55,396 bases of DNA from a virus (lineage: Duplodnaviria > Heunggongvirae > Uroviricota > Caudoviricetes), in the IMG/VR virus record IMGVR_UViG_2721755728_000002; one strand, 5' to 3'. This document shows, one piece after another, positions 1,419 to 51,137 of this stretch; positions within the stretch are counted from its first letter, which is position 1, and each line of letters opens with the position of its first letter. The position numbers and the translations under genes were made by a program. Below the pieces are notes generated by a model, which worked only from the letters and a program-made list of their open reading frames with translations, made no database searches and was not told the DNA's origin.

Positions 1419-3890
1419 TTAAAAATCAGCCTGACTCGGGATCAGTTTTTGCCAGATAACTGAAACGTATTTTGCCTGGTAACGGGCGTCATCAAGTGCA
1501 TTATGGCGCTCACCTTCGAATGGAATAGCCGTTCTGGCATCGAAGTCTATGGCTTTCCCCAGCTCAACGATTGTGCGTACATCGCGATCGTTGTAGTAAC
1601 GCCACGGGCAGGGGATCCCCTGCCGTTCGTATGAACGGCGCAAAATCGTGTTGTCGAAGTTGGCTCCATTTCCCCAGACCTGAACAAAAAATTCACCGGA
1701 GTTTTCGTCGATAAATTCCCGCAATTGTAACAGTGCATCATCTAACGGGATTTCATCGGTCATAATGGCAGATTGCGCTTCGCGTGATTGCTTAAGCCAC
1801 CATTTAATGGTGTCCCGATCAATGACTCCGCCAGCAGTTTCCAGATCGATAGTCTTACTAAATTCCGGTCCCATATCTCCGGTTTGCGGATCGAAAAATA
1901 TTGCACCTATTGAGATGATCGGGGCATCAGGATTTTTTCCCATGGTTTCAAGGTCGATCATTAGATGGTCACACGTCCTGCTGGTGGATGTGATTTCTTG
2001 ATGACCGTTCACCTTAATTGGGTGATCTGCCGTCTCGCCAGTTTCATTATCGCTATCGTGATGCTGATTGCCGCCAGTGTTCTCCTTGTGTGGATGTTCA
2101 GCGCCTTCCATTTCCTCCGGATCATCTTCCTGAACTTCAACCTGATACTCTTCATCGAATGTTTCCTGGTATGTAGCGTCGCCCATCACCGCGCCACAAT
2201 CAGGGCAGTTGCCGCCGCCGGTCTGACCGCAGGCGGTGCAGACTTTTTCCACTTCCTGTTGCACTACTGGTTCAGGTAGTTTCGTTTCTGGCTCGTTTTG
2301 TTGCGTATTTGGGCTGTTTTGTTCCGCTTTCTGGTCGTTCTGTTCCGTTTCTTGCTGGTTCTGGTTCACAGAATCGCGGGTTTCAATCCCCTTCACCCAT
2401 TTCGGATCATTCGGGTCGCTAATCCCTGCAACAAATTCACCACGTGATGCGGCGAGCAACTGATTGGCGTCAGGCTGGCTGATATTGGCTGCCTGCATAA
2501 TTTTCTTTACTTCGTCAGCGGTAACTTTTACCGGTTCTGGTTGTTCAGAATTTTGTGCGGTATTTGCATTTTGCGGTAAGCCTGTGTATGTGCCATTTTT
2601 TCGGGCGAAATATTCTTCTTTCGTGATTTCAGTAGCCCCTGCAGCCAGTGCCTTATCCAGACCAGAAAGTTTGTTTGCGCGACCGTATTTTTCGCTATCC
2701 TTGTCGGTGAAGAGGAAGTAGAACGGCCCTTCACGCTCTACAGATGGTTCGACTTCCACTTTGCATTCGGTTTTTTCGTTGTCCGGAATTGCCGTTTCCA
2801 CTGCATCAGTTTCTGGTACTGGCGACGAGAGAGTATCAGTTGCGCTCTGATTTCTTCCTTCATCTTCAAACACGCCCTTTGTAGTCAGGTATTCAGTAAT
2901 GTATTTGTTCAGTGCCACAGGGTCTTTGTGAATGTCGATCGGACGTTCACGGACAAGGCCAAAAATAGTCTGGCGGTCGTAGCGAAGGGCATCAGGCTGT
3001 TTGCGCATTGATGCCGAGATACGCTTCCAGTCTTCGCGGTCGTTGTCGATAACTTCTTTTTTTGCCCAGCGATGGATGCTGCCGTCAATGTTTCCGGCAT
3101 CCACATCACCAGGCCAGAGAGCGTAGGCCAGTTCGTCATCCAGTGTTTTCCATGTCTGCTTGTATTCGCGATGAGTGGCAGCAATGACCGGGCTGATTTT
3201 TCCTGTTGAATTTTCAGTGTTCTGTTGATTGGCTCTGGCGCGGGCGAGATCAACAACAGACGTGTATTTTCCGGTTTCCTTGCGTTCACCTTCGCGACGT
3301 TTTTTCCAGATGCGCATCTCTGCCTGAATTTCGGGCCATTTGGCACCAGGCTTACATTTATGCTTAACCCACCCGATGGCATGCAGCTTAAGCTCCGGAT
3401 ACATGGCGTTAACTTCTGGCATTTTCATCAACGCTTCAACGATATGTCCGTCGAATGTTGCCATGTCTTCCTGCAACAATTCCTGCGCGCTAATCACCAT
3501 ATCAACGGTGATGTTTTCACATGTGTCGAACTTAACCATGACAGCGTTCTGTACTTCAGGGGCCAGCTTGTCAAAAGTGACGTTCATCGGATCTGATTCA
3601 GTCTCAACCGGGACAAAGGAAGCAGACTCCTCATCCCAGCGGTTTTCCTGCATATATTCAGCATCCCAGGAATCGAGGGCAGGGCGGGGTATACCGGGTT
3701 TATCCTCGCAAACAAGAAATTTATAAGCGCAGTCCTGAGCAGCCGGATAATGTTCCAGGAATTGCCAGTGAAATTTTGCGCGGGCGCGACGTTCATCACC
3801 GGCTTCAATGGCAGTGGCTACAGCGACTGCACCTTCTTCCTTTATTGCCTGTTCGTCCGGAATGGCGGCGCAAATAAAGACTTTACTCAT
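1419..3890 (-). CDS. Phage exonuclease with C-terminal DnaQ-like (DEDDh) 3'-5' exonuclease domain
   Basis: 823 aa ORF; C-terminus has Exo I (MIDLETMG), Exo II (VWGNGANFD) and Exo III (HNALDDARY) motifs; GAGG RBS before ATG at 3890. Confidence 0.7.
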   Translation of the reverse strand: MSKVFICAAIPDEQAIKEEGAVAVATAIEAGDERRARAKFHWQFLEHYPAAQDCAYKFLVCEDKPGIPRPALDSWDAEYMQENRWDEESASFVPVETESDPMNVTFDKLAPEVQNAVMVKFDTCENITVDMVISAQELLQEDMATFDGHIVEALMKMPEVNAMYPELKLHAIGWVKHKCKPGAKWPEIQAEMRIWKKRREGERKETGKYTSVVDLARARANQQNTENSTGKISPVIAATHREYKQTWKTLDDELAYALWPGDVDAGNIDGSIHRWAKKEVIDNDREDWKRISASMRKQPDALRYDRQTIFGLVRERPIDIHKDPVALNKYITEYLTTKGVFEDEGRNQSATDTLSSPVPETDAVETAIPDNEKTECKVEVEPSVEREGPFYFLFTDKDSEKYGRANKLSGLDKALAAGATEITKEEYFARKNGTYTGLPQNANTAQNSEQPEPVKVTADEVKKIMQAANISQPDANQLLAASRGEFVAGISDPNDPKWVKGIETRDSVNQNQQETEQNDQKAEQNSPNTQQNEPETKLPEPVVQQEVEKVCTACGQTGGGNCPDCGAVMGDATYQETFDEEYQVEVQEDDPEEMEGAEHPHKENTGGNQHHDSDNETGETADHPIKVNGHQEITSTSRTCDHLMIDLETMGKNPDAPIISIGAIFFDPQTGDMGPEFSKTIDLETAGGVIDRDTIKWWLKQSREAQSAIMTDEIPLDDALLQLREFIDENSGEFFVQVWGNGANFDNTILRRSYERQGIPCPWRYYNDRDVRTIVELGKAIDFDARTAIPFEGERHNALDDARYQAKYVSVIWQKLIPSQADF

Positions 3891-10316: not shown

Positions 10317-11511
<1,195 letters not shown>

Positions 11512-18020: not shown

Positions 18021-18096
18021 GGCCCTTTAGCTCAGTGGTGAGAGCGAGCGACTCATAATCGCCAGGTCGCTGGTTCAAATCCAGCAAGGGCCACCA
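18021..18096 (+). tRNA. tRNA with CAU anticodon (Ile2/ileX-like, or Met)
   Basis: 76 nt cloverleaf; acceptor stem GGCCCTT/AAGGGCC plus ACCA; anticodon loop CTCATAA; GGTTCAAATCC T-arm. Confidence 0.8.
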
Positions 18097-18196: not shown

Positions 18197-18273
18197 GCGT
18201 TGTTAGCTCAGCCGGACAGAGCAATTGCCTTCTAAGCAATCGGTCAGTGGTTCGACTCCACTACAACGCGCCA
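18197..18273 (+). tRNA. tRNA-Arg (UCU anticodon)
   Basis: 77 nt; acceptor GCGTTGT/ACAACGC plus GCCA; anticodon stem-loop ATTGC-CTTCTAA-GCAAT; GGTTCGACTCC T-arm. Confidence 0.8.
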
Positions 18274-29930: not shown

Positions 29931-30152
29931 ATGGCAAAGATCCGATATCTGCAGGGCACGCATGATGCCCGGGCCGGGGATATCCGTGATGTGGCACAGC
30001 CGTGTGCGGAGGTGCTGGTTCGCCTGGGGAAGGCGGAGTACATCACAGCGCGACGTCCGGCAGGTCAGAAAAAGAAACGTGATGCGGAGCATGGCGAATG
30101 TGGAACCTTTTGCGGCGAACCCGAAAAAACCAGAAATCAGGACGTGACGTAA
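29931..30152 (+). CDS. Possible small ORF between capsid and portal genes
   Basis: 73 aa ORF; weak RBS. Confidence 0.2.
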   Translation: MAKIRYLQGTHDARAGDIRDVAQPCAEVLVRLGKAEYITARRPAGQKKKRDAEHGECGTFCGEPEKTRNQDVT

Positions 30153-31462
30153 GAGAAGTGGGCTGGCGGTCCCTGTTTCAGGCGGTGGCTGAGCCTTTTG
30201 CCGGTGCCTGGCAGCAGGGTGTGAAAGCCGATCCGGAAACCGTTTTGTCCTTTCACGCGGTGTTTTCATGCATTTCGCTGATATCCCAGGATATTGCCAA
30301 AATGCGGCTTCGCCTGATGCAGACTGATGTACAGGGAATACGCCGGGAAAAGCGGCAGGGAGATACTGCCCGTCTCTGTCGTCGTCCTAATGCGCAGCAG
30401 AATCGCATCCAGTTTTTTGAACTGTGGCTGAATTCCAAATTGCGTCACGGCAATACGGTGGTGCTGAAAATCCGCAACCCCCGGGGGCAGATCAAAGAAC
30501 TGCGTATTCTGGACTGGAACCGGGTTGAACCTCTGGTGGCGGATGACGGCGACGTGTTCTACCGCATCACGCCGGACCGGAACTGTGGGATCACAGAGTC
30601 GGTGACGGTGCCTGCCCGGGAGGTGATCCACGACCGTTTTAACTGTTTTTTTCATCCGCTTGTGGGGCTGCCGCCGGTGTATGCCGCAGGACTGGCCGCC
30701 ATGCAGGGGCATCATATTCAGGCAAATTCGACGTATTTTTTCAGAAATGGCGGGCGACCATCAGGCGTGATTGAGGTCCCCGGCAGTATTACGGAAGAAA
30801 ACGCGAAAAAACTGAAGGGGAACTGGGACAGCGGATATACGGGCGAAAATGCCGGGAAGACGGCCATACTGAGCAACGGGGCAAAATACAGCCCCACGAC
30901 GTTTTCACCGGTGGATGCGCAGACGGTGGAACAACTGAAAATGACGGCTGAAATTGTCTGTTCGGTGTTCCGTGTCCCGGCCTACAAGATTGGCGTTGGC
31001 CACCCGCCTTCCAGTGACAACGTGGAGGCGCTGGAGCAGCAGTATTATTCCCAGTGTCTGCAGACGCTGATTGAGTCCATTGAGCTGTTACTGGATGAGG
31101 CGCTGGAAACGGGGGAAAACGAGAGCACGGAGTTTGACGTCACCACGCTGCTGAGAATGGACAGCGAACGGCGCATGAAAACACTGGGTGAATCGGTGAA
31201 AAATACGCTTCTCACGCCCAATGAGGCCCGTAAACGTGAGAACCTGCCGCCCCTTGCCGGCGGTGATGCACTGTATCTTCAGCAGCAGAACTACAGTCTG
31301 GAGGCGCTGTCCCGTCGTGATGCCCGTGAGGACCCGTTCGCGTCGGCCGGGAAAACAGTTTCAGCACAACTGCCTGACGGCGCATCTGACGGTAATAAGG
31401 CAATCAGTGAAACAGAGCATGATGCAGTGAAAGCGATGTTCAGGGGGATACTGAGAAAATGA
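30098..31462 (+). CDS. Portal protein (HK97 family)
   Basis: Portal-like sequence (FFRNGGRPSGVIEV..., LKGNWDSGYTGENAGKTAIL..., FRVPAYKIGVG); alternative GTG start at 30158. Confidence 0.75.
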   Translation: MWNLLRRTRKNQKSGRDVREVGWRSLFQAVAEPFAGAWQQGVKADPETVLSFHAVFSCISLISQDIAKMRLRLMQTDVQGIRREKRQGDTARLCRRPNAQQNRIQFFELWLNSKLRHGNTVVLKIRNPRGQIKELRILDWNRVEPLVADDGDVFYRITPDRNCGITESVTVPAREVIHDRFNCFFHPLVGLPPVYAAGLAAMQGHHIQANSTYFFRNGGRPSGVIEVPGSITEENAKKLKGNWDSGYTGENAGKTAILSNGAKYSPTTFSPVDAQTVEQLKMTAEIVCSVFRVPAYKIGVGHPPSSDNVEALEQQYYSQCLQTLIESIELLLDEALETGENESTEFDVTTLLRMDSERRMKTLGESVKNTLLTPNEARKRENLPPLAGGDALYLQQQNYSLEALSRRDAREDPFASAGKTVSAQLPDGASDGNKAISETEHDAVKAMFRGILRK

Positions 31463-32358
31463 CGGAACGGGAACTGTCCATTATTCGTGCACTGGGCGAA
31501 GAATTCTCCACGGTGCTGGCGGATTTACAGCGCACATTTGAGGGGAAGATGGCCGCGCAGGCACAAGCGTTTGAAGAGAAACTGGCTTCCCTGTCGGCGG
31601 TATTACAGAAGCATGTGACGGTGGATGAGGTACATCCGGTTCTGCAGGCGATGGTGGATGACGCTGTGGGGACCATTCCGGTACCGCGTGATGGTCGTGA
31701 TTATGATCCGGATGTACTGCAGCAGGCGGTGAATGATGCGGTTGCGAATATTCCGGTACCGGCGGACGGCAAAAGTATCACCCCCGATGATGTGCGTCCG
31801 ATGCTTGAGCAGATGGTGAAAGAGGCCGTAAGCCATATCCCTGCTCCGCGTGATGGTCGTGATTACGATCCGGAAGTACTGAAGCAGGCGGTTCTGGAGG
31901 CGGTGAATGCCCTTCCGGCTCCGCAGGACGGGCGTGATGCCACGGCACTGGAAGTGCTCCCCGCTATTGACGATCAAAAATCCTTTCCCCGGGGCACGTA
32001 TGCCACACACCTGGGTGGACTCTGGCGGGCGTATGAAAAAACGCACGGGATGCGGGGATGGGAATGCCTGGTTGACGGGGTGGCGGATATCGACGTCAGC
32101 ATGACGGATGAGCGGTTGTTCTCTGTGGTGATCCGGCAGAGCAGTGGCCAGTGTACGGAAAAAACATTTTCCCTGCCGGTGATGCTCTACCGCGGTGTGT
32201 TCAGAGCCGGTGAAACCTACCACCCCGGCGATACGGTGACGTGGGGGGGCTCGCTGTGGCACTGCAACAGTATGACCGGTGATAAACCCGGAGAAGCTCA
32301 TTCATCAGGCTGGACCCTGGCTGCAAAACGTGGACGGGATGCAGGAGGCGGAAAATGA
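31459..32358 (+). CDS. Head-associated protein with internal ~30-aa tandem repeats
   Basis: Repeats such as IPVPRDGRDYDPDVLQQAVNDAV / IPAPRDGRDYDPEVLKQAVLEAV. Confidence 0.55.
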   Translation: MTERELSIIRALGEEFSTVLADLQRTFEGKMAAQAQAFEEKLASLSAVLQKHVTVDEVHPVLQAMVDDAVGTIPVPRDGRDYDPDVLQQAVNDAVANIPVPADGKSITPDDVRPMLEQMVKEAVSHIPAPRDGRDYDPEVLKQAVLEAVNALPAPQDGRDATALEVLPAIDDQKSFPRGTYATHLGGLWRAYEKTHGMRGWECLVDGVADIDVSMTDERLFSVVIRQSSGQCTEKTFSLPVMLYRGVFRAGETYHPGDTVTWGGSLWHCNSMTGDKPGEAHSSGWTLAAKRGRDAGGGK

Positions 32359-39626: not shown

Positions 39627-40370
39627 ATGACACAGACTGAATCAGCGATTCTGGCGCATGCCCGGCGGTGTGCGCCTGCGGAGTCGTGCGGCTTCGTGAT
39701 AAGCACGCCGGAGGGGGAGTGGTATATCCCTTGTGTGAATATTTCTGCAGAGCCGGAGGCGTATTTTCGTATCGCACCGGAAGACTGGCTGCGGGCAGAG
39801 ATGCAGGGGGAGATTGTGGCACTGGTCCACAGTCATCCCGGTGGGCTGCCCTGGCTGAGCGAGGCTGACCGGCGGCTGCAGATAAAAAGTGCACTGTCCT
39901 GGTGGCTGGTCTGCCGGGGGGAAATTCATAAATTCCGCTGTGTGCCACATCTGACAGGACGGCGCTTTGAGCACGGGGTGACGGACTGTTACACGCTGTT
40001 CCGGGATGCATACCATCTGGCGGGAATTGATATGCCGGATTTTGAGCGTGAGGATGACTGGTGGCGCAACGGTCAGAACCTTTACCTGGACAATATGGCG
40101 GTCACCGGCTTTTACCGGGTGCCCCTGTCCTCTGCACAGGCGGGCGATATCCTGCTGTGCTGCTTTGGCGCATCGGTGGCCAATCATGCCGCCATTTACT
40201 GCGGCAACGGTGAACTGCTTCACCATCTGCCTGAACAACTGAGTAAACGGGAGAGGTATTCCGAAAAATGGCAACGACGAACGCATTCTGTCTGGCGTCA
40301 CCGCCACTGGCACGCATCTGCCTTCACGGGGATTTGCAACGATTTGGCCGCCGCCTCAGCCTGTATGTGA
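39627..40370 (+). CDS. K: Tail assembly protein K (MPN/JAB + NlpC/P60)
   Basis: MTQTESAILAHARRCAPAESCGFV... near-identical to lambda K N-terminus; HSHPGG motif. Confidence 0.9.
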   Translation: MTQTESAILAHARRCAPAESCGFVISTPEGEWYIPCVNISAEPEAYFRIAPEDWLRAEMQGEIVALVHSHPGGLPWLSEADRRLQIKSALSWWLVCRGEIHKFRCVPHLTGRRFEHGVTDCYTLFRDAYHLAGIDMPDFEREDDWWRNGQNLYLDNMAVTGFYRVPLSSAQAGDILLCCFGASVANHAAIYCGNGELLHHLPEQLSKRERYSEKWQRRTHSVWRHRHWHASAFTGICNDLAAASACM

Positions 40371-40948
40371 ACACGGCAGCGGAAGCCATCCGTGCCCTGT
40401 CGATGCAGATGCCGGGATTCCGCCGTCAGATGAACGAAGGCTGGTACCAGATACGTATTGCCGGTGAAGACATGGCACCGGAGGCGGTGTATGCCCGCCT
40501 TCACGAACAACTGGGTGAGGGAACGGTCATCCATATTGTGCCGCGACTGGCCGGTGCAGGGAAAGGCGGACTGCAGATTGTGCTGGGGGCGGCAGCCATC
40601 GTGGGCTCTTTCTTCACCGCCGGCGCAACGATGGCGTTATGGGGTTCAGCCCTGGCAGCCGGCGGTTTTTCTGCCACCACGATGCTGTTTTCACTGGGGG
40701 CCAGCATGATACTGGGCGGTGTGGCCCAGATGCTGGCCCCGAAGGCAAAGACGCCGGAGTACAAAAGTACGGATAACGGTAAACAGAACACGTATTTTTC
40801 GTCACTGGACAACATGATTGCCCAGGGGAACCCGATGCCGGTGCCTTACGGTGAAATGCTGGTTGGCTCCCGGCGAATCTCCCAGGACATCAGCACCCGT
40901 GATGAAGGTGGTGGCGGGAAGGTGGTGGTTATCGGGCGGCAGGGGTAA
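40268..40948 (+). CDS. I: Tail assembly protein I
   Basis: Colinear with lambda I (ARICLYGDLQRFGRR..., GAAAIAGSFFTAGAT..., TDNGKQNTYFSSLDNM). Confidence 0.85.
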   Translation: MATTNAFCLASPPLARICLHGDLQRFGRRLSLYVNTAAEAIRALSMQMPGFRRQMNEGWYQIRIAGEDMAPEAVYARLHEQLGEGTVIHIVPRLAGAGKGGLQIVLGAAAIVGSFFTAGATMALWGSALAAGGFSATTMLFSLGASMILGGVAQMLAPKAKTPEYKSTDNGKQNTYFSSLDNMIAQGNPMPVPYGEMLVGSRRISQDISTRDEGGGGKVVVIGRQG

Positions 40949-43900
40949 AGCATAAAAAAATCCCGCAGTGTATGGAGGCTGCGGGAACAGAAAATGAAGA
41001 TTAACCACAGGGGGTTTTGTTTTTATTGGCCCGAAAAAACTGTAACGCCCGGGAATGATATCTGCCACGGGGCGTACAGAAAATGTGAAGAAATTCAGAA
41101 ATTTTATTCCGTCATGACACAGGCACCCTCCGGGGTGCCTGTCGTTTTTGGGGCATAAACAGATTCAGACATCAGACAGGAGAGGGGGACAGAGTGGGTA
41201 AAGGTGGCGGCAGGGCGCACACGCCGGTAGAGGCAAAGGACAATCTTAAGTCCACGCAGATGATGAGCGTGATTGACGCCATTGGTGAAGGGCCGATTGA
41301 AGGTCCGGTGAAGGGGCTGCAGAGTATTCTGGTGAACAAAACCCCGCTGACGGACACGGACGGTAATCCTGTGATACATGGTGTGACAGCGGTCTGGCGC
41401 GCCGGGGAGCAGGAGCAGACACCGCCGGAAGGTTTTGAGTCATCCGGCTCTGAAACCGCACTGGGCGTGGAAGTGACGAAGGCAAAGCCGGTGACGCGCA
41501 CCATTACGTCCGCGAACATTGACCGCCTGCGGGTCACCTTCGGGGTGCAGTCACTGGTGCAGACCACCTCACAGGGTGACCGTAACCCGGCATCCGTCCG
41601 CCTGCTGATTCAGCTGCAGCGTAACGGTAACTGGGTGACGGAAAAGGATGTCACCATTAACGGCAAGACCACCTCACAGTTCCTCGCTTCGGTGATTCTG
41701 GATAATCTGCCTCCCCGCCCCTTTAACATCCGGATGGTCAGGGAGACGGCGGACAGCACCACGGACCAGCTGCAGAATAAGACGCTCTGGTCGTCATACA
41801 CCGAAATCATCGATGTGAAACAGTGCTACCCGAACACGGCGATTGTGGGGCTGCAGGTGGATGCGGAGCAGTTTGGCGGTCAGCAGATGACGGTGAACTA
41901 CCATATCCGAGGTCGCATCATCCAGGTGCCGTCAAACTATGACCCGGAAAAACGCACGTACAGCGGCATCTGGGACGGCAGCCTGAAACCGGCATACAGC
42001 AACAACCCGGCCTGGTGCCTGTGGGACATGCTGACTCACCCGCGCTACGGCATGGGAAAACGTCTGGTGGCGGCGGATGTTGACAAGTGGGCGCTGTATG
42101 CCATTGCGCAGTACTGCGACCAGACGGTCCCGGATGGTTTCGGGGGCACAGAGCCGCGGATGACCTTTAATGCGTACCTGTCACAACAGCGTAAGGCATG
42201 GGATGTGCTCAGTGATTTCTGCTCGGCGATGCGCTGTATGCCGGTATGGAACGGCCAGACGCTGACGTTCGTTCAGGACCGCCCGTCGGATGTGGTGTGG
42301 CCGTACACCAACTGCGATGTGGTGGTGGATGATAACGGCGTGGGGTTTCGCTACAGCTTCAGCGCCCTGAAGGACCGCCACACGGCGGTGGAGGTGAATT
42401 ACACCGACCCGCAGAACGGCTGGCAGACCTCCACGGAACTGGTGGAAGACCCGGAAGCCATACTGCGCTACGGGCGCAACCTGCTGAAGATGGATGCGTT
42501 CGGTTGCACCAGTCGCGGTCAGGCCCACCGTGCCGGGCTGTGGGTGATAAAGACCGGACTGCTGGAAACGCAGACGGTGGATTTCACGCTCGGGTCACAG
42601 GGGCTGCGTCACACACCCGGTGACATTATTGAAATCTGTGATAACGACTATGCCGGGACCATGACCGGCGGACGTATCCTGTCCATCGATGCCGCCAGCC
42701 GCACCCTGACACTGGACCGTGAGGTGACCCTGCCGGAGACAGGTGCCGCCACGGTGAACCTGATTAACGGCAGCGGTAAGCCGGTGAGCGTGGCCATCAC
42801 TGCACACCCCGCGCCGGACCGGATACAGGTCAGCACCCTGCCTGATGGTGTGGAGACATACGGTGTATGGGGACTCTCCCTGCCGTCACTGCGTCGTCGC
42901 CTGTTCCGCTGTGTCTCCATCCGGGAAAACACGGACGGCACCTTTGCCATCACGGCGGTGCAGCACGTACCGGAAAAAGAAGCCATTGTGGATAACGGGG
43001 CCAGCTTTGAGCCACTGTCCGGTTCGCTGAACAGCGTCATCCCGCCGGCTGTGCAGCACCTGACGGTGGAGGTGAGCGCGGCTGACGGTCAGTATCTGGC
43101 ACAGGCGAAATGGGACACGCCGCGGGTGGTGAAGGGTGTGCGCTTCAGTCTGCGCCTGACCAGCGGAAGCGGAGAAGACAGCCGTCTGGTGACCACCGCC
43201 ATCACTGCGGATACAGAGCACCGTTTCAGTGGTCTGCCGCCCGGGGAATACACCCTGACAGTCAGGGCAATTAACAGTTATGGCCAGCAGGGCGAACCGG
43301 CCACCACCACGTTCAGGATTAATGCACCTGCGGTACCCGCCACGATTGAGCTGACACCGGGCTATTTTCAGATAACAGCGGTCCCGCGTCTTGCGGTGTA
43401 TGACCCGACGGTACAGTTTGAGTTCTGGTTTTCGGAGACAAAAATCGCAGACATATCTCAGGTGGAAACCTCTGCCCGTTATCTGGGGACCGGCAGTCAG
43501 TGGAGTGTATCCGGCCCGCACATTAAGCCCGGGAAGGATTTCTGGTTTTACGTGCGCAGCGTCAACCTGGTGGGGAAATCTGCGTTTGTGGAAGTCAGCG
43601 GGCAGCCCAGCAATGATGGTGAAGGGTATCTGGAATTTTTCCGGGAAAAAATAGGAAAACTGCATCTGGCTCAGGGGCTGTGGGAGCTGATAGACAACAG
43701 CCAGCTTGCGGATGAGATGGCGGAGATGAAGACCACCATCACCGAAACCCGCAATGAAATCACACAGACGGTCAGTAAAACGCTGGAGGACCAGAGCGCC
43801 ACCATACAGCAGATACAGCGCGTGCAGAAGGACACAAATGATGACCTTGCTGCACTTTACATGCTGAAGGTACAGAAAACAAAAAATGCCGGTGAAGACA

Positions 43901-46900
43901 TGGCACCGGAGGCGGTGTATGCCCGCCTTCACGAACAACTGGGTGAGGGAACGGTCATCCATATTGTGCCGCGACTGGCCGGTGCAGGGAAAGGCGGACT
44001 GCAGATTGTGCTGGGGGCGGCAGCCATCGTGGGCTCTTTCTTCACCGCCGGCGCAACGATGGCGTTATGGGGTTCAGCCCTGGCAGCCGGCGGTTTTTCT
44101 GCCACCACGATGCTGTTTTCACTGGGGGCCAGCATGATACTGGGCGGTGTGGCCCAGATGCTGGCCCCGAAGGCAAAGACGCCGGAGTACAAAAGTACGG
44201 ATAACGGTAAACAGAACACGTATTTTTCGTCACTGGACAACATGATTGCCCAGGGGAACCCGATGCCGGTGCCTTACGGTGAAATGCTGGTTGGCTCCCG
44301 GCGAATCTCCCAGGACATCAGCACCCGTGATGAAGGTGGTGGCGGGAAGGTGGTGGTTATCGGGCGGCAGGGGTAAAGCATAAAAAAATCCCGCAGTGTA
44401 TGGAGGCTGCGGGAACAGAAAATGAAGATTAACCACAGGGGGTTTTGTTTTTATTGGCCCGAAAAAACTGTAACGCCCGGGAATGATATCTGCCACGGGG
44501 CGTACAGAAAATGTGAAGAAATTCAGAAATTTTATTCCGTCATGACACAGGCACCCTCCGGGGTGCCTGTCGTTTTTGGGGCATAAACAGATTCAGACAT
44601 CAGACAGGAGAGGGGGACAGAGTGGGTAAAGGTGGCGGCAGGGCGCACACGCCGGTAGAGGCAAAGGACAATCTTAAGTCCACGCAGATGATGAGCGTGA
44701 TTGACGCCATTGGTGAAGGGCCGATTGAAGGTCCGGTGAAGGGGCTGCAGAGTATTCTGGTGAACAAAACCCCGCTGACGGACACGGACGGTAATCCTGT
44801 GATACATGGTGTGACAGCGGTCTGGCGCGCCGGGGAGCAGGAGCAGACACCGCCGGAAGGTTTTGAGTCATCCGGCTCTGAAACCGCACTGGGCGTGGAA
44901 GTGACGAAGGCAAAGCCGGTGACGCGCACCATTACGTCCGCGAACATTGACCGCCTGCGGGTCACCTTCGGGGTGCAGTCACTGGTGCAGACCACCTCAC
45001 AGGGTGACCGTAACCCGGCATCCGTCCGCCTGCTGATTCAGCTGCAGCGTAACGGTAACTGGGTGACGGAAAAGGATGTCACCATTAACGGCAAGACCAC
45101 CTCACAGTTCCTCGCTTCGGTGATTCTGGATAATCTGCCTCCCCGCCCCTTTAACATCCGGATGGTCAGGGAGACGGCGGACAGCACCACGGACCAGCTG
45201 CAGAATAAGACGCTCTGGTCGTCATACACCGAAATCATCGATGTGAAACAGTGCTACCCGAACACGGCGATTGTGGGGCTGCAGGTGGATGCGGAGCAGT
45301 TTGGCGGTCAGCAGATGACGGTGAACTACCATATCCGAGGTCGCATCATCCAGGTGCCGTCAAACTATGACCCGGAAAAACGCACGTACAGCGGCATCTG
45401 GGACGGCAGCCTGAAACCGGCATACAGCAACAACCCGGCCTGGTGCCTGTGGGACATGCTGACTCACCCGCGCTACGGCATGGGAAAACGTCTGGTGGCG
45501 GCGGATGTTGACAAGTGGGCGCTGTATGCCATTGCGCAGTACTGCGACCAGACGGTCCCGGATGGTTTCGGGGGCACAGAGCCGCGGATGACCTTTAATG
45601 CGTACCTGTCACAACAGCGTAAGGCATGGGATGTGCTCAGTGATTTCTGCTCGGCGATGCGCTGTATGCCGGTATGGAACGGCCAGACGCTGACGTTCGT
45701 TCAGGACCGCCCGTCGGATGTGGTGTGGCCGTACACCAACTGCGATGTGGTGGTGGATGATAACGGCGTGGGGTTTCGCTACAGCTTCAGCGCCCTGAAG
45801 GACCGCCACACGGCGGTGGAGGTGAATTACACCGACCCGCAGAACGGCTGGCAGACCTCCACGGAACTGGTGGAAGACCCGGAAGCCATACTGCGCTACG
45901 GGCGCAACCTGCTGAAGATGGATGCGTTCGGTTGCACCAGTCGCGGTCAGGCCCACCGTGCCGGGCTGTGGGTGATAAAGACCGGACTGCTGGAAACGCA
46001 GACGGTGGATTTCACGCTCGGGTCACAGGGGCTGCGTCACACACCCGGTGACATTATTGAAATCTGTGATAACGACTATGCCGGGACCATGACCGGCGGA
46101 CGTATCCTGTCCATCGATGCCGCCAGCCGCACCCTGACACTGGACCGTGAGGTGACCCTGCCGGAGACAGGTGCCGCCACGGTGAACCTGATTAACGGCA
46201 GCGGTAAGCCGGTGAGCGTGGCCATCACTGCACACCCCGCGCCGGACCGGATACAGGTCAGCACCCTGCCTGATGGTGTGGAGACATACGGTGTATGGGG
46301 ACTCTCCCTGCCGTCACTGCGTCGTCGCCTGTTCCGCTGTGTCTCCATCCGGGAAAACACGGACGGCACCTTTGCCATCACGGCGGTGCAGCACGTACCG
46401 GAAAAAGAAGCCATTGTGGATAACGGGGCCAGCTTTGAGCCACTGTCCGGTTCGCTGAACAGCGTCATCCCGCCGGCTGTGCAGCACCTGACGGTGGAGG
46501 TGAGCGCGGCTGACGGTCAGTATCTGGCACAGGCGAAATGGGACACGCCGCGGGTGGTGAAGGGTGTGCGCTTCAGTCTGCGCCTGACCAACGGAAGCGG
46601 AGAAGACAGCCGTCTGGTGACCACCGCCATCACTGCGGATACAGAGCATCGTTTCAGTGGTCTGCCGCTCGGGGAATACACCCTGACAGTCAGGGCAATT
46701 AACAGGTATGGCCAGCAGGGCGAACCGGCCACCACCACCTTCCGGATTAACGCGCCAGCAAAACCCGCCACCATTGAACTGACGCCGGGGTATTTTCAGA
46801 TAACGGCGGTCCCGCGTCTTGCGGTGTATGACCCGACGGTACAGTTTGAGTTCTGGTTTTCGGAGGCAAAAATCGCAGACACATCTCAGGTGGAAACCTC

Positions 46901-47318
46901 TGCCCGTTATCTGGGGACCGGCAGTCAGTGGAGTGTATCCGGCCCGCACATTAAGCCCGGGAAGGATTTCTGGTTTTACGTGCGCAGCGTCAACCTGGTG
47001 GGGAAATCTGCGTTTGTGGAAGTCAGCGGGCAGCCCAGCAATGATGGTGAAGGGTATCTGGAATTTTTCCGGGAAAAAATAGGAAAACTGCATCTGGCTC
47101 AGGGGCTATGGGAGCTGATAGACAACAGCCAGCTTGCGGATGAGATGGCGGAGATGAAGACCACCATCACCGAAACCCGCAATGAAATCACACAGACGGT
47201 CAGTAAAACGCTGGAAGACCAGAGCGCCACCATTCAGCAGATACAGCGCGTGCAGAAGGACACAAATGATGACCTGGCTGCGCTGTACATGCTGAAGGTT
47301 CAAAAAACGAAAGACGGC
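40463..47318 (+). repeat. Tandem direct repeat, 2 x ~3428 bp (I 3' part + intergenic + J 5' ~2.7 kb)
   Basis: Six-frame ORFs recur with 3428-bp offset (e.g. 40458/43886, 41194/44622); proximal ~2.7 kb appears identical, distal ~730 bp differs at scattered positions. Confidence 0.8.
41194..44376 (+). CDS. Chimeric ORF: J N-terminal ~890 aa fused in frame to I C-terminal ~170 aa
   Basis: Lambda J-like through ...LKVQKTK, then switches to I sequence AGEDMAPEAVYARL... and ends with the I C-terminus. Confidence 0.7.
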   Translation: MGKGGGRAHTPVEAKDNLKSTQMMSVIDAIGEGPIEGPVKGLQSILVNKTPLTDTDGNPVIHGVTAVWRAGEQEQTPPEGFESSGSETALGVEVTKAKPVTRTITSANIDRLRVTFGVQSLVQTTSQGDRNPASVRLLIQLQRNGNWVTEKDVTINGKTTSQFLASVILDNLPPRPFNIRMVRETADSTTDQLQNKTLWSSYTEIIDVKQCYPNTAIVGLQVDAEQFGGQQMTVNYHIRGRIIQVPSNYDPEKRTYSGIWDGSLKPAYSNNPAWCLWDMLTHPRYGMGKRLVAADVDKWALYAIAQYCDQTVPDGFGGTEPRMTFNAYLSQQRKAWDVLSDFCSAMRCMPVWNGQTLTFVQDRPSDVVWPYTNCDVVVDDNGVGFRYSFSALKDRHTAVEVNYTDPQNGWQTSTELVEDPEAILRYGRNLLKMDAFGCTSRGQAHRAGLWVIKTGLLETQTVDFTLGSQGLRHTPGDIIEICDNDYAGTMTGGRILSIDAASRTLTLDREVTLPETGAATVNLINGSGKPVSVAITAHPAPDRIQVSTLPDGVETYGVWGLSLPSLRRRLFRCVSIRENTDGTFAITAVQHVPEKEAIVDNGASFEPLSGSLNSVIPPAVQHLTVEVSAADGQYLAQAKWDTPRVVKGVRFSLRLTSGSGEDSRLVTTAITADTEHRFSGLPPGEYTLTVRAINSYGQQGEPATTTFRINAPAVPATIELTPGYFQITAVPRLAVYDPTVQFEFWFSETKIADISQVETSARYLGTGSQWSVSGPHIKPGKDFWFYVRSVNLVGKSAFVEVSGQPSNDGEGYLEFFREKIGKLHLAQGLWELIDNSQLADEMAEMKTTITETRNEITQTVSKTLEDQSATIQQIQRVQKDTNDDLAALYMLKVQKTKNAGEDMAPEAVYARLHEQLGEGTVIHIVPRLAGAGKGGLQIVLGAAAIVGSFFTAGATMALWGSALAAGGFSATTMLFSLGASMILGGVAQMLAPKAKTPEYKSTDNGKQNTYFSSLDNMIAQGNPMPVPYGEMLVGSRRISQDISTRDEGGGGKVVVIGRQG

Positions 47319-48098
47319 ATACCCTATGTTGCCGGGATTGGAGCGGGGATTGAGGATACTGATGGCCAGTCACTGAGCAACATACTGCTGCTGGCTGACC
47401 GTATCGCGATGATAAATCCGGAGAGCGGCAACAGCACGCCGTTATTTGTGGCGCAGGGGAATCAGCTGTTCATGAACGACGTGTTCCTGAAACGACTGTT
47501 TGCGGTGAGTATCACGTCATCCGGCAACCCCCCGACGTTTTCCCTGACGCCGGAAGGGAAGCTGACAGCCAGGAACGCGGATATCAGCGGAGCAATTACC
47601 GCGAATACCGGCACGCTCAATAATGTCACCATTAACGAGAACTGTGTCATCAGAGGGAAACTGTCTGCAAACCAGATTGAAGGCGACCTGGTGAAGACGG
47701 TGGGGAAAGCCTTTCCCCGGAATAACAGTTATGCCAGCGGGACGGTAACCGTCACAGTTTACGATGACCAGGGCTTCGACCGGCAGATTATCATTCCCCC
47801 GGTGCTGTTTCGCGGGACGAAACACCAGAATTTCAACAGCCCGAATCAGCAGTCGTACTGGTATTCCACCTGTAAGCTGCAGGTGCTGAAGAACGGGGTT
47901 GAGATTTTCCATGAACCGGCAACGGATGTCAGCCGGGTGTTCTCATCGGTGATAGATATGCCGGCAGGGCGGGGTCATGTCACCCTGACGTTTAATGTGT
48001 CGTCGGCCGGTGCGAACAACTGGACGCCGACAACGTACATCAGTGATTTACTGGTTGTGGTCATGAAAAAATCCACGGCAGGGATCAGTATCAGCTGA
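44622..48098 (+). CDS. J: Tail tip / host specificity protein J
   Basis: 1158 aa colinear with lambda J along its full length; GTG start with AGGAGAGGGGG RBS. Confidence 0.9.
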
Positions 48099-48117
48099 CG
48101 GTTTATTAACCCGGACG

Positions 48118-48142
48118 GGCACCTCAGGAGGTGCCTTTTTTA
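48118..48142 (+). terminator. Rho-independent terminator after J
   Basis: ggcacctc-agga-ggtgcc followed by ttttttatt. Confidence 0.45.
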
Positions 48143-48166
48143 TTGACTGAAAACAAAGAGGTAATC

Positions 48167-48790
48167 ATGCGGCATTTATACGCAACGATATTATTGTTTA
48201 CTACCCTGCTGGCAGGAATTGCCTTTCCTGCACAGGCTGAAAGCGGACACGGTGCATTTTCCGTGGGATATGCTCAGGTTCACCCGGGCGGCGTACCGGC
48301 ATTGTCCGGTACCGGTGCGCGTGCAGGTGATTTAAAAGGGATTAATGTGAAATACCGTTATGAGTTCACGGATCACCTGGGCGGCATTGTCGCGCTGAGT
48401 TATGCATCGGTGAAGAAAAGTGACACGATGAAGACGGGTGAAAATACCTTCCATTATGAAAGCCTGCGCGGTCGTTATGTCAGTCTGATGGCCGGCCCTG
48501 TCTGGCAGCTCAGTGAGCGGGTCAGTCTCTATGGCATGGCCGGGATGGCGTACACCCGCTGGTCTGACAGTGTTCAGGATTACCGGCGTGATGAAGTGAA
48601 ACCGGGGTATGTGAAGGAGACCACCACCGCCAGTGATGGTCATACTGCGCGTCATCTGTCGCCGGCCTGGAATGCCGGGATTCAGTTCAGTCCCGTAGAG
48701 ACGGTGGTTATTGACCTTGCTTATGAAGGTTCCGGCAGTGGCGACTGGCGCACTGACGGTTTCATCGTGGGTGTCGGCTATAAATTCTGA
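48167..48790 (+). CDS. lom: Outer membrane protein Lom (Ail/Lom family)
   Basis: Signal peptide MRHLYATILLFTTLLAGIAFPAQA and beta-barrel C-terminal GVGYKF; position after J as in lambda. Confidence 0.85.
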   Translation: MRHLYATILLFTTLLAGIAFPAQAESGHGAFSVGYAQVHPGGVPALSGTGARAGDLKGINVKYRYEFTDHLGGIVALSYASVKKSDTMKTGENTFHYESLRGRYVSLMAGPVWQLSERVSLYGMAGMAYTRWSDSVQDYRRDEVKPGYVKETTTASDGHTARHLSPAWNAGIQFSPVETVVIDLAYEGSGSGDWRTDGFIVGVGYKF

Positions 48791-48854
48791 TTAGCCAGGT
48801 AACACAGTGTTATGACAGCCCGCCGGTTCAGGCGGGCTTTTTTGTGGGGTGAAT

Positions 48855-50177
48855 ATGGCAGTAAAGATTTCAGGTGTACTGAAAGACGGCACAGGAAAAC
48901 CGGTACAGAACTGCACAATCCAGCTGAAAGCAAAACGTAACAGCACCACGGTGGTGGTGAACACGCTGGCCTCAGAAAATCCGGATGAAGCCGGGCGTTA
49001 CAGCATGGACGTTGAGTACGGTCAGTACAGCGTTATTCTGTTGGTGGAAGGGGTCCCGCCGTCACATGCCGGGACCATCACCGTGTATGAAGATTCTCAG
49101 CCGGGTACGCTGAATGATTTTCTCGGTGCCATGACGGAGGAGGATGCCCGGCCGGAGGCACTGCGCCGTTTTGAACAGATGGTGGAAGAGGTGGCGCGTC
49201 ACGCTGAGGAGGCGAAGAAGAATGCCGGAGAGGCGGAGACGTCCGCGAGGAATGCCGGCATATCAGCCAGTCAGGCAGAAGAGAGCGCTGCAAATGCTGA
49301 CACTTCAGCAGGGGAGGCATCGGAGTCAGCCCGGCAGGCGGCAGAAAGTGCAGCCTCAGCAAAGCAGTCAGAGGATGCGTCCTCGTCCTCGGCTTCTGCG
49401 GCCGCTCAAAAAGCCAGTGAGTCATCACAAAGTGCAGCAGAAGCTGAATTGTCAAGAAAGACGGCAGAAAGTGCAGCCGGTAATGCAGCCAGGGATGCAA
49501 CGACCGCAACAGAAAAAGCCCGGGAGTCAGCAGAAAGCGCACAGTCAGCGGAACAAAGCAGGATAGCGGCGGAAGAAGCCGTAAACCGAATCCCCACAGT
49601 GGTGGGGCCACCCGGGCCAAAGGGAGAACCGGGGCCCGCGGGTCCTCAGGGGCCGAAGGGAGATAAAGGAGAGCGTGGCGACACCGGTCCTGTCGGGGCA
49701 ACCGGTGAACGGGGACCGGCAGGTGATGCTGGTCCGGCAGGCCCGCAGGGGCCGAAAGGCGACAGGGGAGAGCGGGGAGAGACCGGTCTGACGGGAAATG
49801 CAGGTCCACAGGGTCCAAAGGGAGATACCGGTGCGGCAGGCCCGGCAGGCCCGGCAGGCCCACAGGGACCGAAAGGAGAAACAGGTGCGGCTGGCCCGGT
49901 GGGGGCAACCGGACCTCAGGGACCGAAGGGCGACCCGGGGGAGACACAAATCCGTTTTCGTCTGGGGCCGGCGAGCATTATTGAGACAAACAGCAATGGC
50001 TGGTTCCCGGGTACAGATGGTGCGCTCATCACCGGACTGACCTTTCTTGACCCCAAAGATGCCACACAGGTTCAGGGGCTGTTTCAGCATTTGCAGGTCA
50101 GGTTTGGTGACGGGCCGTGGCAGGATGTTAAGGGGCTGGATGAAGTGGGCAGTGATACAGGCAGAACAGGAGAATGA
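48855..50177 (+). CDS. stf: Side tail fibre-like protein with collagen-like Gly-X-Y repeats
   Basis: N-terminus [26 protein letters not shown]... matches lambda Stf N-terminus; ~110 aa of GXY repeats. Confidence 0.8.
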
Positions 50178-50178
50178 C

Positions 50179-50448
50179 ATGAACATACTAAAAAAACTTA
50201 TGCAGCGTCTGTGCGGTTGCGGAAAGCATGATGGCCGTGAACACGGGCAGTCGCTTACAGTACAACTGCGACTGGGACCGGCAGACATTCTGGAGTCCGA
50301 TGAGAGTGGCATTATCCCGGAGCAGGACAGGGTAATCACGCAGGTGGTGATACTGGATGCGGATAAAAAGCAGATACAGTGTGTGGTAAGACCGCTGCAA
50401 ATTCTGCGTGCTGACGGGACGTGGGAAAATATTGGCGGGATGAAGTAA
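50179..50448 (+). CDS. Small protein homologous to the C-terminal tip of the Stf-like fibre
   Basis: 89 aa; LTVQLRLGPADILESDESG... aligns with the fibre C-terminus [18 protein letters not shown]... Confidence 0.45.
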   Translation: MNILKKLMQRLCGCGKHDGREHGQSLTVQLRLGPADILESDESGIIPEQDRVITQVVILDADKKQIQCVVRPLQILRADGTWENIGGMK

Positions 50449-50461
50449 CCCGACGGATTCA

Positions 50462-50490
50462 CAAAAACCGGAGTCCGGCTCCGGTTTTTG
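50462..50490 (+). terminator. Rho-independent terminator
   Basis: ccggag-tc-cggctccgg followed by tttttgttg; exact copy recurs at 51336-51364. Confidence 0.5.
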
Positions 50491-50561
50491 TTGTCATGTA
50501 TGGGGGCTGTTTGTTATGACTCCCTGTGTTTGGAATGAATATTTAAATAGGGAGTTTTGTC

Positions 50562-51137
50562 ATGCCGTTAACATCAGCTATTGCATCCAATTCATTTTCC
50601 ACCGGAATGCAGGTTCTTCGTGCTCAAATGGCCGCCAGTGGCGGTGGAGAAATTACAGTAGGCGGGCAGACGGTCCGTATCACATATAGTGAAACGGATG
50701 GTCGCTTTCTGGCGAGTGGGGGCAATAACAGTTTGCTTTCTGGATTATTACTTACAGGGCTTAATGGTGGTCCTGAAGCGCTCAGGGATATAATGTTAAG
50801 AATGGTTTCAGGTTCAGGTAACACACAATCACATGGTGATATTGAGGGGAAAATATCACAATGTAAGTTTTCTGTTAATACGGAGAGCCTTCAGTGTCCA
50901 TCCGAGGCGGTTCGATGCCCAATTATACTGGATAAACCAGAAGAAGGTGTGTTTGTTAAAAATTCAGAAGGTTCTTTGGTTTGTACCTTATTTGATTCGG
51001 TTTCTTTTTCTCATTTGGTTCGCGACGGTGGGAAGCACCCGCTAACACGAGAACCAATAACGTCATCAATGATTGTAAGTCAAGAACAATGTATTTATGA
51101 CCAAACCAAAGGAAACTTTGTCATAAAGGATAAGTGA
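50562..51137 (+). CDS. nleG: NleG-family type III effector (U-box E3 ligase-like)
   Basis: 191 aa; C-terminal conserved block CPIILDKPEEGVFVKNSEG...CTLFD...HPLTREPIT. Confidence 0.8.
   Translation: MPLTSAIASNSFSTGMQVLRAQMAASGGGEITVGGQTVRITYSETDGRFLASGGNNSLLSGLLLTGLNGGPEALRDIMLRMVSGSGNTQSHGDIEGKISQCKFSVNTESLQCPSEAVRCPIILDKPEEGVFVKNSEGSLVCTLFDSVSFSHLVRDGGKHPLTREPITSSMIVSQEQCIYDQTKGNFVIKDK

Follow-up and report, generated by a model that had tools for sequence, protein, structure and literature searches.

The potB/potC prophage of the cattle strain Escherichia coli C7 (NZ_CP010240.1), which is the window analyzed here (the whole stretch of 55,396 nucleotides), contains a direct, head-to-tail tandem repeat with a unit of 3,428 bp, running from the middle of tail gene I into tail gene J. 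The second copy of the unit ends in a foreign J allele, and the end of this allele adjoins the end of the duplication itself. The duplication is a one-off variant, ordinary in kind, and not a new biological system, and it is probably the scar of one sloppy repair of a DNA break. That it represents a real and recent rearrangement, private to C7 and created in a defective lambdoid prophage by one multi-template break-repair event, appears to us an evenly balanced proposition.

Architecture of the repeat and of its junction

A tandem I–J repeat of ~3.43 kb had been proposed in a sequence-only reading of this stretch, and it was confirmed by the identity profile at a shift of 3428 nt together with the list of mismatches; the limits given there, 40463–47318, were displaced by 4 nt from the exact ones, 40459–47314. 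In the self-comparison, every 50-nt bin from 40500 to 43150 has 50/50 matches at this shift, whereas the background outside the repeat is ~8–20/50 per bin. The features of the region are as follows.

40367..40948, + strand: gene I, intact tail assembly gene, 193 aa in the PGAP model (PGAP CDS WP_001090046.1; Pfam Lambda_tail_I at aa 2–64)
40459..43886, + strand: tandem repeat copy 1, 3,428 bp, comprising I codons 32–193, the I–J spacer, and J nt 1–2693 (shift-3428 profile, mismatch list)
40949..41193, no strand: I–J intergenic spacer, copy 1, 245 bp, with a terminator-like hairpin at 41119–41142
41194..44376, + strand: chimeric J'-'I ORF, 1,060 aa, consisting of J aa 1–898 (A allele) and I aa 32–193 (ORF list, translation)
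43163..43886, + strand: last ~725 bp of copy 1, resident A allele, identical to strain C3
43886..43889, + strand: novel junction, J ...AAAAAA[TG]CCGGTG... I (sequence comparison)
43887..47314, + strand: tandem repeat copy 2, 3,428 bp (shift-3428 profile, mismatch list)
44377..44621, no strand: I–J intergenic spacer, copy 2, with a terminator-like hairpin at 44547–44570
44622..48098, + strand: intact but mosaic J, 1,158 aa, WP_073520354.1 (ORF list, PGAP, Pfam)
46591..47315, + strand: B-allele patch, J nt 1970–2694, aa 657–898 (allele comparison)
47316..47320, + strand: interval holding the B-to-A switch, J nt 2695–2699

The duplicated segment starts inside gene I, at codon 31/32. Its first 2,704 bp are identical in the two copies, and a perfect repeat of 2.7 kb cannot have arisen by chance. 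All 30 differences between the copies are located at 43163–43887 (46591–47315 in copy 2), that is, within the last ~725 bp of the unit, close to the ~730 bp over which divergence had been noted earlier.

The repeat contains a single novel junction, located at J nt 2693–2695, by which codon 898 of J is joined in frame to codon 32 of I. The sole microhomology at the join is a 2-bp TG (43887–43888). A longer, hidden homology was considered and rejected, as the local alignment of the parental sites does not score above shuffled controls, with 1292 of 2000 shuffles reaching the same or a higher score. A TTGCCGG match is present in J 14 nt downstream, and it was not used by the junction. The duplicated region is not flanked by other long repeats, no IS is found at its endpoints, and no ambiguous bases (N) occur in the window, including at the join. 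Chi sites, sought near the break, are absent from the tail genes, all 12 of those within the window being located at 164–23481. Among 5,426 complete E. coli genomes, the junction is present only in that of C7, where it is known from one deposited assembly, and it is absent from phage records, IMG/VR, and JGI metagenomes.

As the sequence-only reading had also stated, a chimeric J–I ORF lies upstream of an intact J. The translation of the chimera runs through ...LKVQKTKN and continues as AGEDMAPEAVYARL..., which is the C terminus of I. The product is missing most of Phage_Tail_Tip and all of Ig_GpJ_C (Pfam), both J' and 'I are marked as pseudogenes in the PGAP (NCBI) annotation, and the fusion protein in this exact form has no record elsewhere. 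The second J retains all six gpJ domains (FNIII-A_GpJ, Phage-tail_3, Ig_J, Ig_J_second, Phage_Tail_Tip, and Ig_GpJ_C), and its exact protein is on record in C7 only. The synteny of tape measure, M, L, K, I, J, lom, and side tail fibre is present, as judged from the PGAP tables and Pfam-annotated neighbors. The I–J spacer corresponds to the slot of sodC in related prophages.

Allelic composition of the two copies

The sister strain C3 (NZ_CP010119.1) has this prophage too, integrated at the identical site and sharing both the IS5 and the portal frameshift, but with a single I–J copy. The identity of the two prophages is 99.6–99.9% across the aligned blocks, and the further differences between them are also clustered in conversion-like patches, which points to frequent homeologous exchange in this lineage.

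Copy 1 agrees with C3 throughout, save for four SNPs that are private to C7, lie in the identical first 2,704 bp, and are common to both C7 copies. Since the copies are identical there, including these four SNPs, and no database sequence is closer than C3, the first 2,704 bp of the second copy appear to have been copied from the resident prophage. The best full-length matches to copy 2 are 99.1% for C3 among the E. coli genomes and 97.3% among the IMG/VR contigs fetched.

The end of copy 2 is different. At nt 1970–2694 of J it agrees with the B reference at 30/30 informative sites, and a 100% match to the patch is found in J of strain 2013C-4991, in 11 other complete genomes, and in one IMG/VR contig. 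The A and B versions of this region differ by 30 nucleotides, 22 of them at codon position 3, and by seven amino acids; judged by this pattern, the differences look like natural allelic variation. Six of the substitutions had been listed before, and all six are present; a seventh, N898/D898, had been missed. Although N898 resembles a junction residue, it is encoded by J's own A-allele codon, AAT. The earlier suggestion that two J alleles are involved and that this is not a clean duplication thus stands, with the addition that the patch that is foreign relative to C3 is situated in the intact, downstream J. An origin of the substitutions in a DGR or an invertible cassette was rejected: they are not adenine-specific, the window has no inverted repeats of at least 60 nt, and neither a reverse transcriptase nor an invertase is annotated.

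After the switch, copy 2 agrees with C3 at 9/9 informative sites (nt 2700–2885) and then for the next 5.7 kb. The interval in which the switch takes place (nt 2695–2699) adjoins the duplication join (nt 2693–2695), and the probability that an independent breakpoint would land this close to the join (~5 nt) is ~0.2%. The recombinant B/A 33-mer was found 0 times in IMG/VR, where 69 contigs have the pure A form and 64 the pure B form, and no other J allele with this switch was found in IMG/VR or among the 5,426 E. coli genomes. A natural module boundary of J at nt ~2695 was also considered and rejected, as those sampled phage alignments that end early stop at nt ~2243, 2625, 2655, 3006, 3024, and 3097. 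The mosaics seen among the 133 IMG/VR J contigs grade into one another, without a break at nt ~2695.

A source of the B patch was sought in both strains. With the best place per record considered, no locus of C7 is closer to the B reference than the second J itself, and no locus of C3 reaches 97.8% identity to the patch. Queries with the B 3' end plus lom, the patch, nt 1970–2900, nt 548–2699, and the B' allele of E2863 yielded no donor locus beyond the window in C7 or C3. Short B-specific queries revealed a second place in C7 that shares both clusters of B-specific SNPs; its identity to the E2863 allele is below 98.9%.

A possible repair event and its alternatives

The coincidence of the end of the patch with the end nucleotide of the duplication argues for one complex repair event, rather than for allelic recombination and a separate duplication. 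The structure, its restriction to C7, the assignment of the alleles, and the coincidence of the breakpoints are observations, whereas the single event, the order of the templates, and the enzymes taking part are inferred. The ancestor would have been similar to C3, with one I–J copy and an A-allele J. A break in J, or the collapse of a replication fork, at nt ~2695 may have been followed by the copying of 3,428 nt of new DNA into the gap, both broken ends being retained. Of this DNA, ~2.7 kb, from mid-I through J nt ~1969, would have been copied from the prophage's own upstream sequence, and at least 725 nt from a J allele of the homeologous B type. Closure of one side by re-annealing at the break would have left the B-to-A switch at nt 2695–2699, and the other side would have been closed by the 2-bp TG microhomology join of J nt 2695 to I codon 32. 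Such an event would be classified as a template-switch, microhomology-mediated break repair, in which a "templated insertion" mimics a tandem duplication, and its presumed products are the J(1–898)-I(32–193) fusion pseudogene and an intact J whose Ig-like domains carry seven substitutions.

Multi-template repair has been documented thoroughly for yeast and human cells but, to our knowledge, only poorly for wild bacteria. That the locus is the fossil of a single repair of this kind, with the B template supplied by a phage or prophage not evident in the genome, is a tentative proposal to which we give slightly less than even weight. Against this explanation count the poor record of such repair in wild bacteria, the single deposited assembly from which the junction is known, the lack of a donor among the loci found, and the shortness of the microhomology, 2 bp compared to 4–15 bp in the study of E. 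coli amplifications (PMC1428787).

An error of assembly or finishing, in which the true locus has one I–J copy and the duplication, the mixed-allele consensus, or both come from assembly, contig joining, or polishing, is the most serious alternative, although we consider it unlikely. One genome alone shows the duplication, J paralogues do misassemble, as in the IMG/VR scaffolds L093, L094, and L121, which chain 3–4 J fragments, and C7 has ~6 other I-J-like places, with B-like words in at least one other locus. Those false joins, however, each carry an N, of which the window has none, and dispersed paralogues presumably could not create a join of J nt 2695 to mid-I, as no read would hold it. 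Moreover, copy 1 is base-perfect relative to C3 up to the join, the B patch represents a genuine natural allele, and mis-mapped reads of a paralogue would have no obvious source in C7. A misassembly across co-resident prophages, raised in the sequence-only reading, is thus disfavored.

A further alternative is that of two unrelated real events, an ordinary microhomology-mediated tandem duplication and a separate gene-conversion patch from a B-type phage or prophage, with ends coinciding by chance. In its favor, events of both types are common, several other conversion-like patches distinguish C7 from C3, and the right-end clusters of A and B are reassorted in related I–J backgrounds. We regard this explanation as distinctly improbable in view of the ~0.002 chance of the patch ending within ~5 nt of the duplication end; in addition, the B/A switch is seen in no other J allele (5,426 genomes and IMG/VR), and no natural module boundary was found at nt 2695 in the sampled phage records and 133 IMG/VR contigs. 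Cassette and diversity systems are known from tail-fibre genes elsewhere, and the fusion found here is in frame, so that a selected arrangement might be envisaged, with a reserve copy of J as a cassette for switching host range or with a J–I fusion protein of some use. An in-frame fusion, however, has a 1-in-3 chance of arising, the arrangement is private to one strain, the portal gene of the prophage is frameshifted and an IS5 is inserted, and the patch lies outside the receptor-binding domain, all of which makes a selected function very hard to credit.

Effects on host range and on the assembly of the tail tip had both been contemplated in the earlier reading. The former found no support, as the patch is confined to the Ig-like domains (aa 657–898), and the receptor-binding domain (aa 1035–1158), like all of the downstream sequence, does not differ from that of C3. 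It is doubtful, too, whether virions would be affected, given that the C7 prophage is degraded by the portal frameshift, shared with C3, and by the IS5 insertion.

Relation to known systems and implications

The gene order and the set of gpJ and gpI Pfam domains in C7 match the lambda-type tail-tip module (H-M-L-K-I-J-lom-stf) of the lambdoid prophages of EHEC and EPEC. Compared to its nearest relative, the potB/potC prophage of C3, the C7 prophage differs in the additional 3,428 bp (mid-I to J nt 2694), the J'-'I ORF, and the B patch. Tandem duplications and amplifications with short microhomology junctions have been described in E. coli, and long-distance template switching was given as their cause (Slack et al. 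2006, PMC1428787). The C7 repeat resembles them in being head-to-tail, with one novel junction, short microhomology, and no long repeat or IS at its ends, whereas its unit is shorter (3.4 kb, compared to 7–32 kb), as is its microhomology (2 bp, compared to 4–15 bp). Also unlike in those duplications, one copy ends in a second, homeologous template, and no selection is evident. The templated insertions of BIR and MMBIR (reviewed in PMC3678771) offer another parallel, in that the C7 insert appears templated, with two templates and both joints at one break position; that literature is mostly concerned with yeast and human cells, whereas the C7 case is deduced from a single natural bacterial sequence.

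Lambdoid phages and defective prophages are known to exchange homeologous sequence (PMC3945230, PMC2327257, PMC2669165). The ~0.7-kb patch in C7, which is ~4% diverged, equal to alleles in other E. coli prophages, and flanked by resident sequence, is similar in kind, except that it is tied to the endpoint of a duplication and that the same genome offers no evident donor. Like the false duplications in L093, L094, and L121, the C7 locus has partial J copies that follow one another and differ in allele, yet those scaffolds contain single-N gaps and unrelated alleles, whereas in C7 the join is continuous and 2.7 kb of the copies are identical. The recurrent tandem arrays of J that these three scaffolds seemed to represent were accordingly rejected as N-joined.

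The import for phage biology itself is small, as the prophage is defective, the receptor-binding domain is untouched, and only one strain is affected. The record of the C7 prophage includes an extra pseudo-J, which calls for caution in annotation pipelines and prophage catalogues. When a break is repaired in one step from several templates, the expected footprint is a tandem duplication whose second copy closes with a foreign allele exactly at the endpoint of the duplication. Such footprints could be searched for systematically in long-read bacterial genomes, giving the rate at which prophage paralogues serve as repair templates. If the proposed repair event is true, the C7 locus would document, directly in the sequence, an MMBIR-like template switch in wild E. 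coli that involved a resident prophage and the genome of a possibly transient phage.

The tandem I-J unit and its junction

Aligned against itself with an offset of 3,428 nt, the window shows perfect identity over 40459-43162, then 34-50 matches per 50-nt bin as far as 43886, beyond which the repeat gives way to background. All 30 differences between the two copies lie in the final ~725 bp (43163-43887 versus 46591-47315). The features of the region are as follows.

40459-43886, repeat unit, copy 1
43887-47314, repeat unit, copy 2
41194-44376, chimeric J'-'I ORF, 1,060 aa
44622-48098, intact second J ORF (J2), 1,158 aa
40949-41193 and 44377-44621, the two copies of the I-J spacer, 245 bp, with terminator-like hairpins

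In translation, the chimeric ORF follows J to ...LKVQKTKN(898) and continues with AGEDMAPEAVYARL..., that is, from codon 32 of I to the I stop. The offset self-comparison, the ORF list and the translation bear out the tandem repeat and chimeric J-I ORF described in the sequence-only reading. Its repeat coordinates hold in substance, with a shift of 4 nt, and its list of amino-acid differences is correct as far as given, with a seventh, N898/D898, to be added; its interpretation as a whole is supported in part. The break in J lies inside the Phage_Tail_Tip fibre domain (aa 871-998) and that in I inside Lambda_tail_I; the chimera lacks the receptor-binding Ig_GpJ_C domain (aa 1035-1158), and J2 retains all domains. 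Both halves of the chimera are annotated by PGAP (NCBI) as pseudogenes, "host specificity protein J, missing C-terminus" and "tail assembly protein, missing N-terminus".

At the junction, the parental sequences are ...AAAACAAAAAA[TG]GCATACC in J and ...CAGATACGTAT[TG]CCGGTGAAG in I, and the product reads ...AAAAAA[TG]CCGGTGAAG, the parental sites sharing only TG as microhomology. Local alignment over ±45 nt detected no additional similarity between them (1292 of 2000 shuffles scored at least as high as the real pair), and neither an IS nor a long repeat was found at the flanks of the duplicated unit. The junction-spanning kilobase is matched in full by only one of 5,426 complete genomes, that of E. 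coli C7 from a cow (NZ_CP010240.1), and is covered by no phage record; the junction was absent from IMG/VR and JGI metagenomes in exact-pattern scans, and a 153-billion-gene index has no entry for the fusion protein.

The ends of the I-J spacer align with the flanks of sodC, which is located between I and J in the prophage of strain 2013C-4991. The spacer is a vacant position for an accessory (moron) gene.

Sister strain C3 and the B-type patch

A lambdoid prophage integrated between potC and potB makes up the window; it includes int/xis, a RecE-like exonuclease, IS5, lysis genes, terminase, capsid and portal genes, the tail genes H-M-L-K-I-J-lom-stf, and NleG/EspW effector genes. A second strain of cow origin, C3 (NZ_CP010119.1), has this prophage at an identical site, with IS5 in the same place (10385-11365, early region) and a single I-J, and appears from the sequence to give the ancestral state of this region. 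Copy 1 is identical to C3 except for four SNPs (J nt 555, 568, 912 and 914), all present in both C7 copies; copy 2 differs from C3 at these four positions and at 30 sites within J nt 1970-2694, and no differences are found over 47316-53021. C7 therefore corresponds to C3 plus 3,428 bp inserted at J nt ~2695, with foreign sequence making up the final ~725 bp of the insert. Two tRNAs are also present in the prophage, one (18021-18096) called Met (CAT) by ARAGORN and Ile by PGAP, the latter presumably reflecting a lysidine-modified CAU anticodon, and the other (18197-18273) Arg (TCT). A 75-nt repeat containing a terminator-like hairpin (50450-50524 and 51318-51392, 92% identity) lies upstream of two NleG-family effector genes.

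With the C3 allele taken as A and the J of strain 2013C-4991 as the B reference, the latter is identical to J2 over nt 569-2694, the four private SNPs aside, and differs from it at nt 2700, 2709, 2721, 2724, 2749, 2817, 2871, 2874 and 2885; in a four-way alignment, C7 agrees with C3 at all nine. Along the 87 sites that distinguish A from B, J2 reads A at 48, then B at 30, then A at 9. Twelve other complete genomes and one IMG/VR contig contain the B-type patch (46591-47315) at 100% identity, and it represents natural allelic variation. Its origin as a sequencing error was rejected, since 22 of the 30 A-B differences fall at third codon positions, 19 are transitions, and the 12 genomes share the identical allele; adenine-directed mutagenesis was rejected on the substitution pattern. 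The B-then-A arrangement occurs in no other genome (best non-self match to 46400-47900, 99.4%), its recombinant 33-mer is missing from IMG/VR, where 69 contigs have the pure A form and 64 the pure B form, and the exact J2 protein is on record only in C7.

Queries of C7 and C3 identified no donor of the patch. The best place in C7 for B reference nt 1970-2900 and nt 548-2699 was J2 itself (99.0% and 99.8%), the B-type J 3' end with lom found nothing at 99.4% or above in C7, and the patch nothing at 97.8% or above in C3. Two short B-specific queries, designed to have no 28-mer in common with the A allele, each found two places in C7; a second C7 locus therefore shares both B-specific SNP clusters. 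Outside the window, this locus has words of at least 28 nt in common with each cluster, falls below 98.9% identity to the E2863 "B′" allele, and is a possible resident donor. The donor would be either a mosaic locus with different flanks or a phage, transient or since lost.

Coincidence of the two joints

The B-to-A switch is bracketed by J nt 2694 (B-specific C) and nt 2700 (A-specific A), and the duplication join lies at J nt 2693-2695. The chance that an independent conversion tract ends in the same ~7-nt span is about 0.2%, with J as the basis and equally with the ~12 patch ends of the whole prophage. No J module boundary was found at nt 2695 in the phage records sampled or in 133 IMG/VR J contigs, and no Chi site near the break; a DGR or invertible cassette was rejected, as no such features are present. 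Chi sites (GCTGGTGG) number twelve at 164-23481, with 2.4 expected, all in the early/regulatory half and none in head or tail genes; nine are on the + strand.

The simplest account is one break at J nt ~2695, with both ends surviving in the product and 3,428 nt of copied DNA lying between them. The resident prophage would have served as template for the first 2.7 kb (mid-I, spacer and J nt 1 to ~1969), and this part of copy 2 is 100% identical to copy 1, private SNPs included; the whole of copy 2 has no database match above the 99.1% of C3 among E. coli genomes or 97.3% among fetched IMG/VR contigs. A B-type J would have been the template for the last 725 bp or more; on one side closure would have been in register, at the break, and on the other through the TG microhomology. 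The duplication is most likely a product of template-switch, microhomology-mediated repair, for which we infer the priming end, template order and enzymes. Tandem duplications of E. coli with short microhomology joins have been ascribed to long-distance template switching (PMC1428787), and homeologous exchange is well documented in lambdoid phages and defective prophages (PMC3945230, PMC2327257, PMC2669165).

Other routes fit the joints less well. Later A-type conversion of copy 1 would have to act on sites lying 1-7 nt from where homology ends, and both single-crossover integration of a circle and unequal exchange between two molecules predict that copy 2 downstream is of the patch type, which is not observed; all three were rejected. 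Misassembly, which the sequence-only reading had also raised, is an unlikely source of the duplication, although no paper on the C7 assembly was found in the literature. A join from J nt 2695 to mid-I with read support should not be obtainable from dispersed J paralogues, copy 1 is base-perfect against C3 as far as the join, and the C7 assembly has no other close B-type source for mis-polishing. The C7 join also contains no N, unlike the similar-looking arrays of 3-4 partial J segments in three IMG/VR scaffolds (L093 1-10317, which includes a 2,112-aa ORF, L094 5400-11410, and L121 1250-7347). These have a single N at every join and are therefore scaffolding artefacts from J paralogues.

Consequences for J and the prophage

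Between aa 657 and aa 898, J2 carries seven substitutions: six map to its pair of Ig-like domains, and the remaining one, N898D, lies at the break, at the beginning of the fibre domain. From nt 2695 onward its fibre and receptor-binding region equals that of C3, and we infer that the host-range effect raised as a possibility from the sequence alone is not to be expected. By analogy with lambda, the truncated J could, if expressed, interfere with J trimer assembly.

The C7-C3 differences form clustered patches in the RecE-like exonuclease (3175-3386), the DUF6645/SASA-esterase-to-holin region (20147-21902) and the portal gene (31866-31882), and this clustering, as opposed to scattered SNPs, suggests repeated gene conversion. 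In the DUF6645/esterase gene, C7 alone has a frameshift, caused by the loss of 1 nt at 20147. Two overlapping ORFs (30098-31462 and 31459-32358) divide the portal gene, labelled "frameshifted" by PGAP in C7 and C3, whose sequences are identical around the frameshift; a diverged 119-nt direct repeat lies nearby (31624-31742 and 31786-31904, 74% identity), and C7 has an extra 162 bp relative to C3 in the region of 31730-31846. With the frameshifted portal, IS5 and the private DUF6645/esterase frameshift, the C7 prophage is unlikely to be viable as a phage; the I-J rearrangement is likely neutral.

In sum, strain C7 alone carries this tandem duplication, to which a homeologous conversion tract is attached. 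The locus is most likely a scar left in a prophage under decay when a single break was repaired from more than one template. It represents a new instance of known processes, its sole notable feature being that two joints coincide at the nucleotide level.
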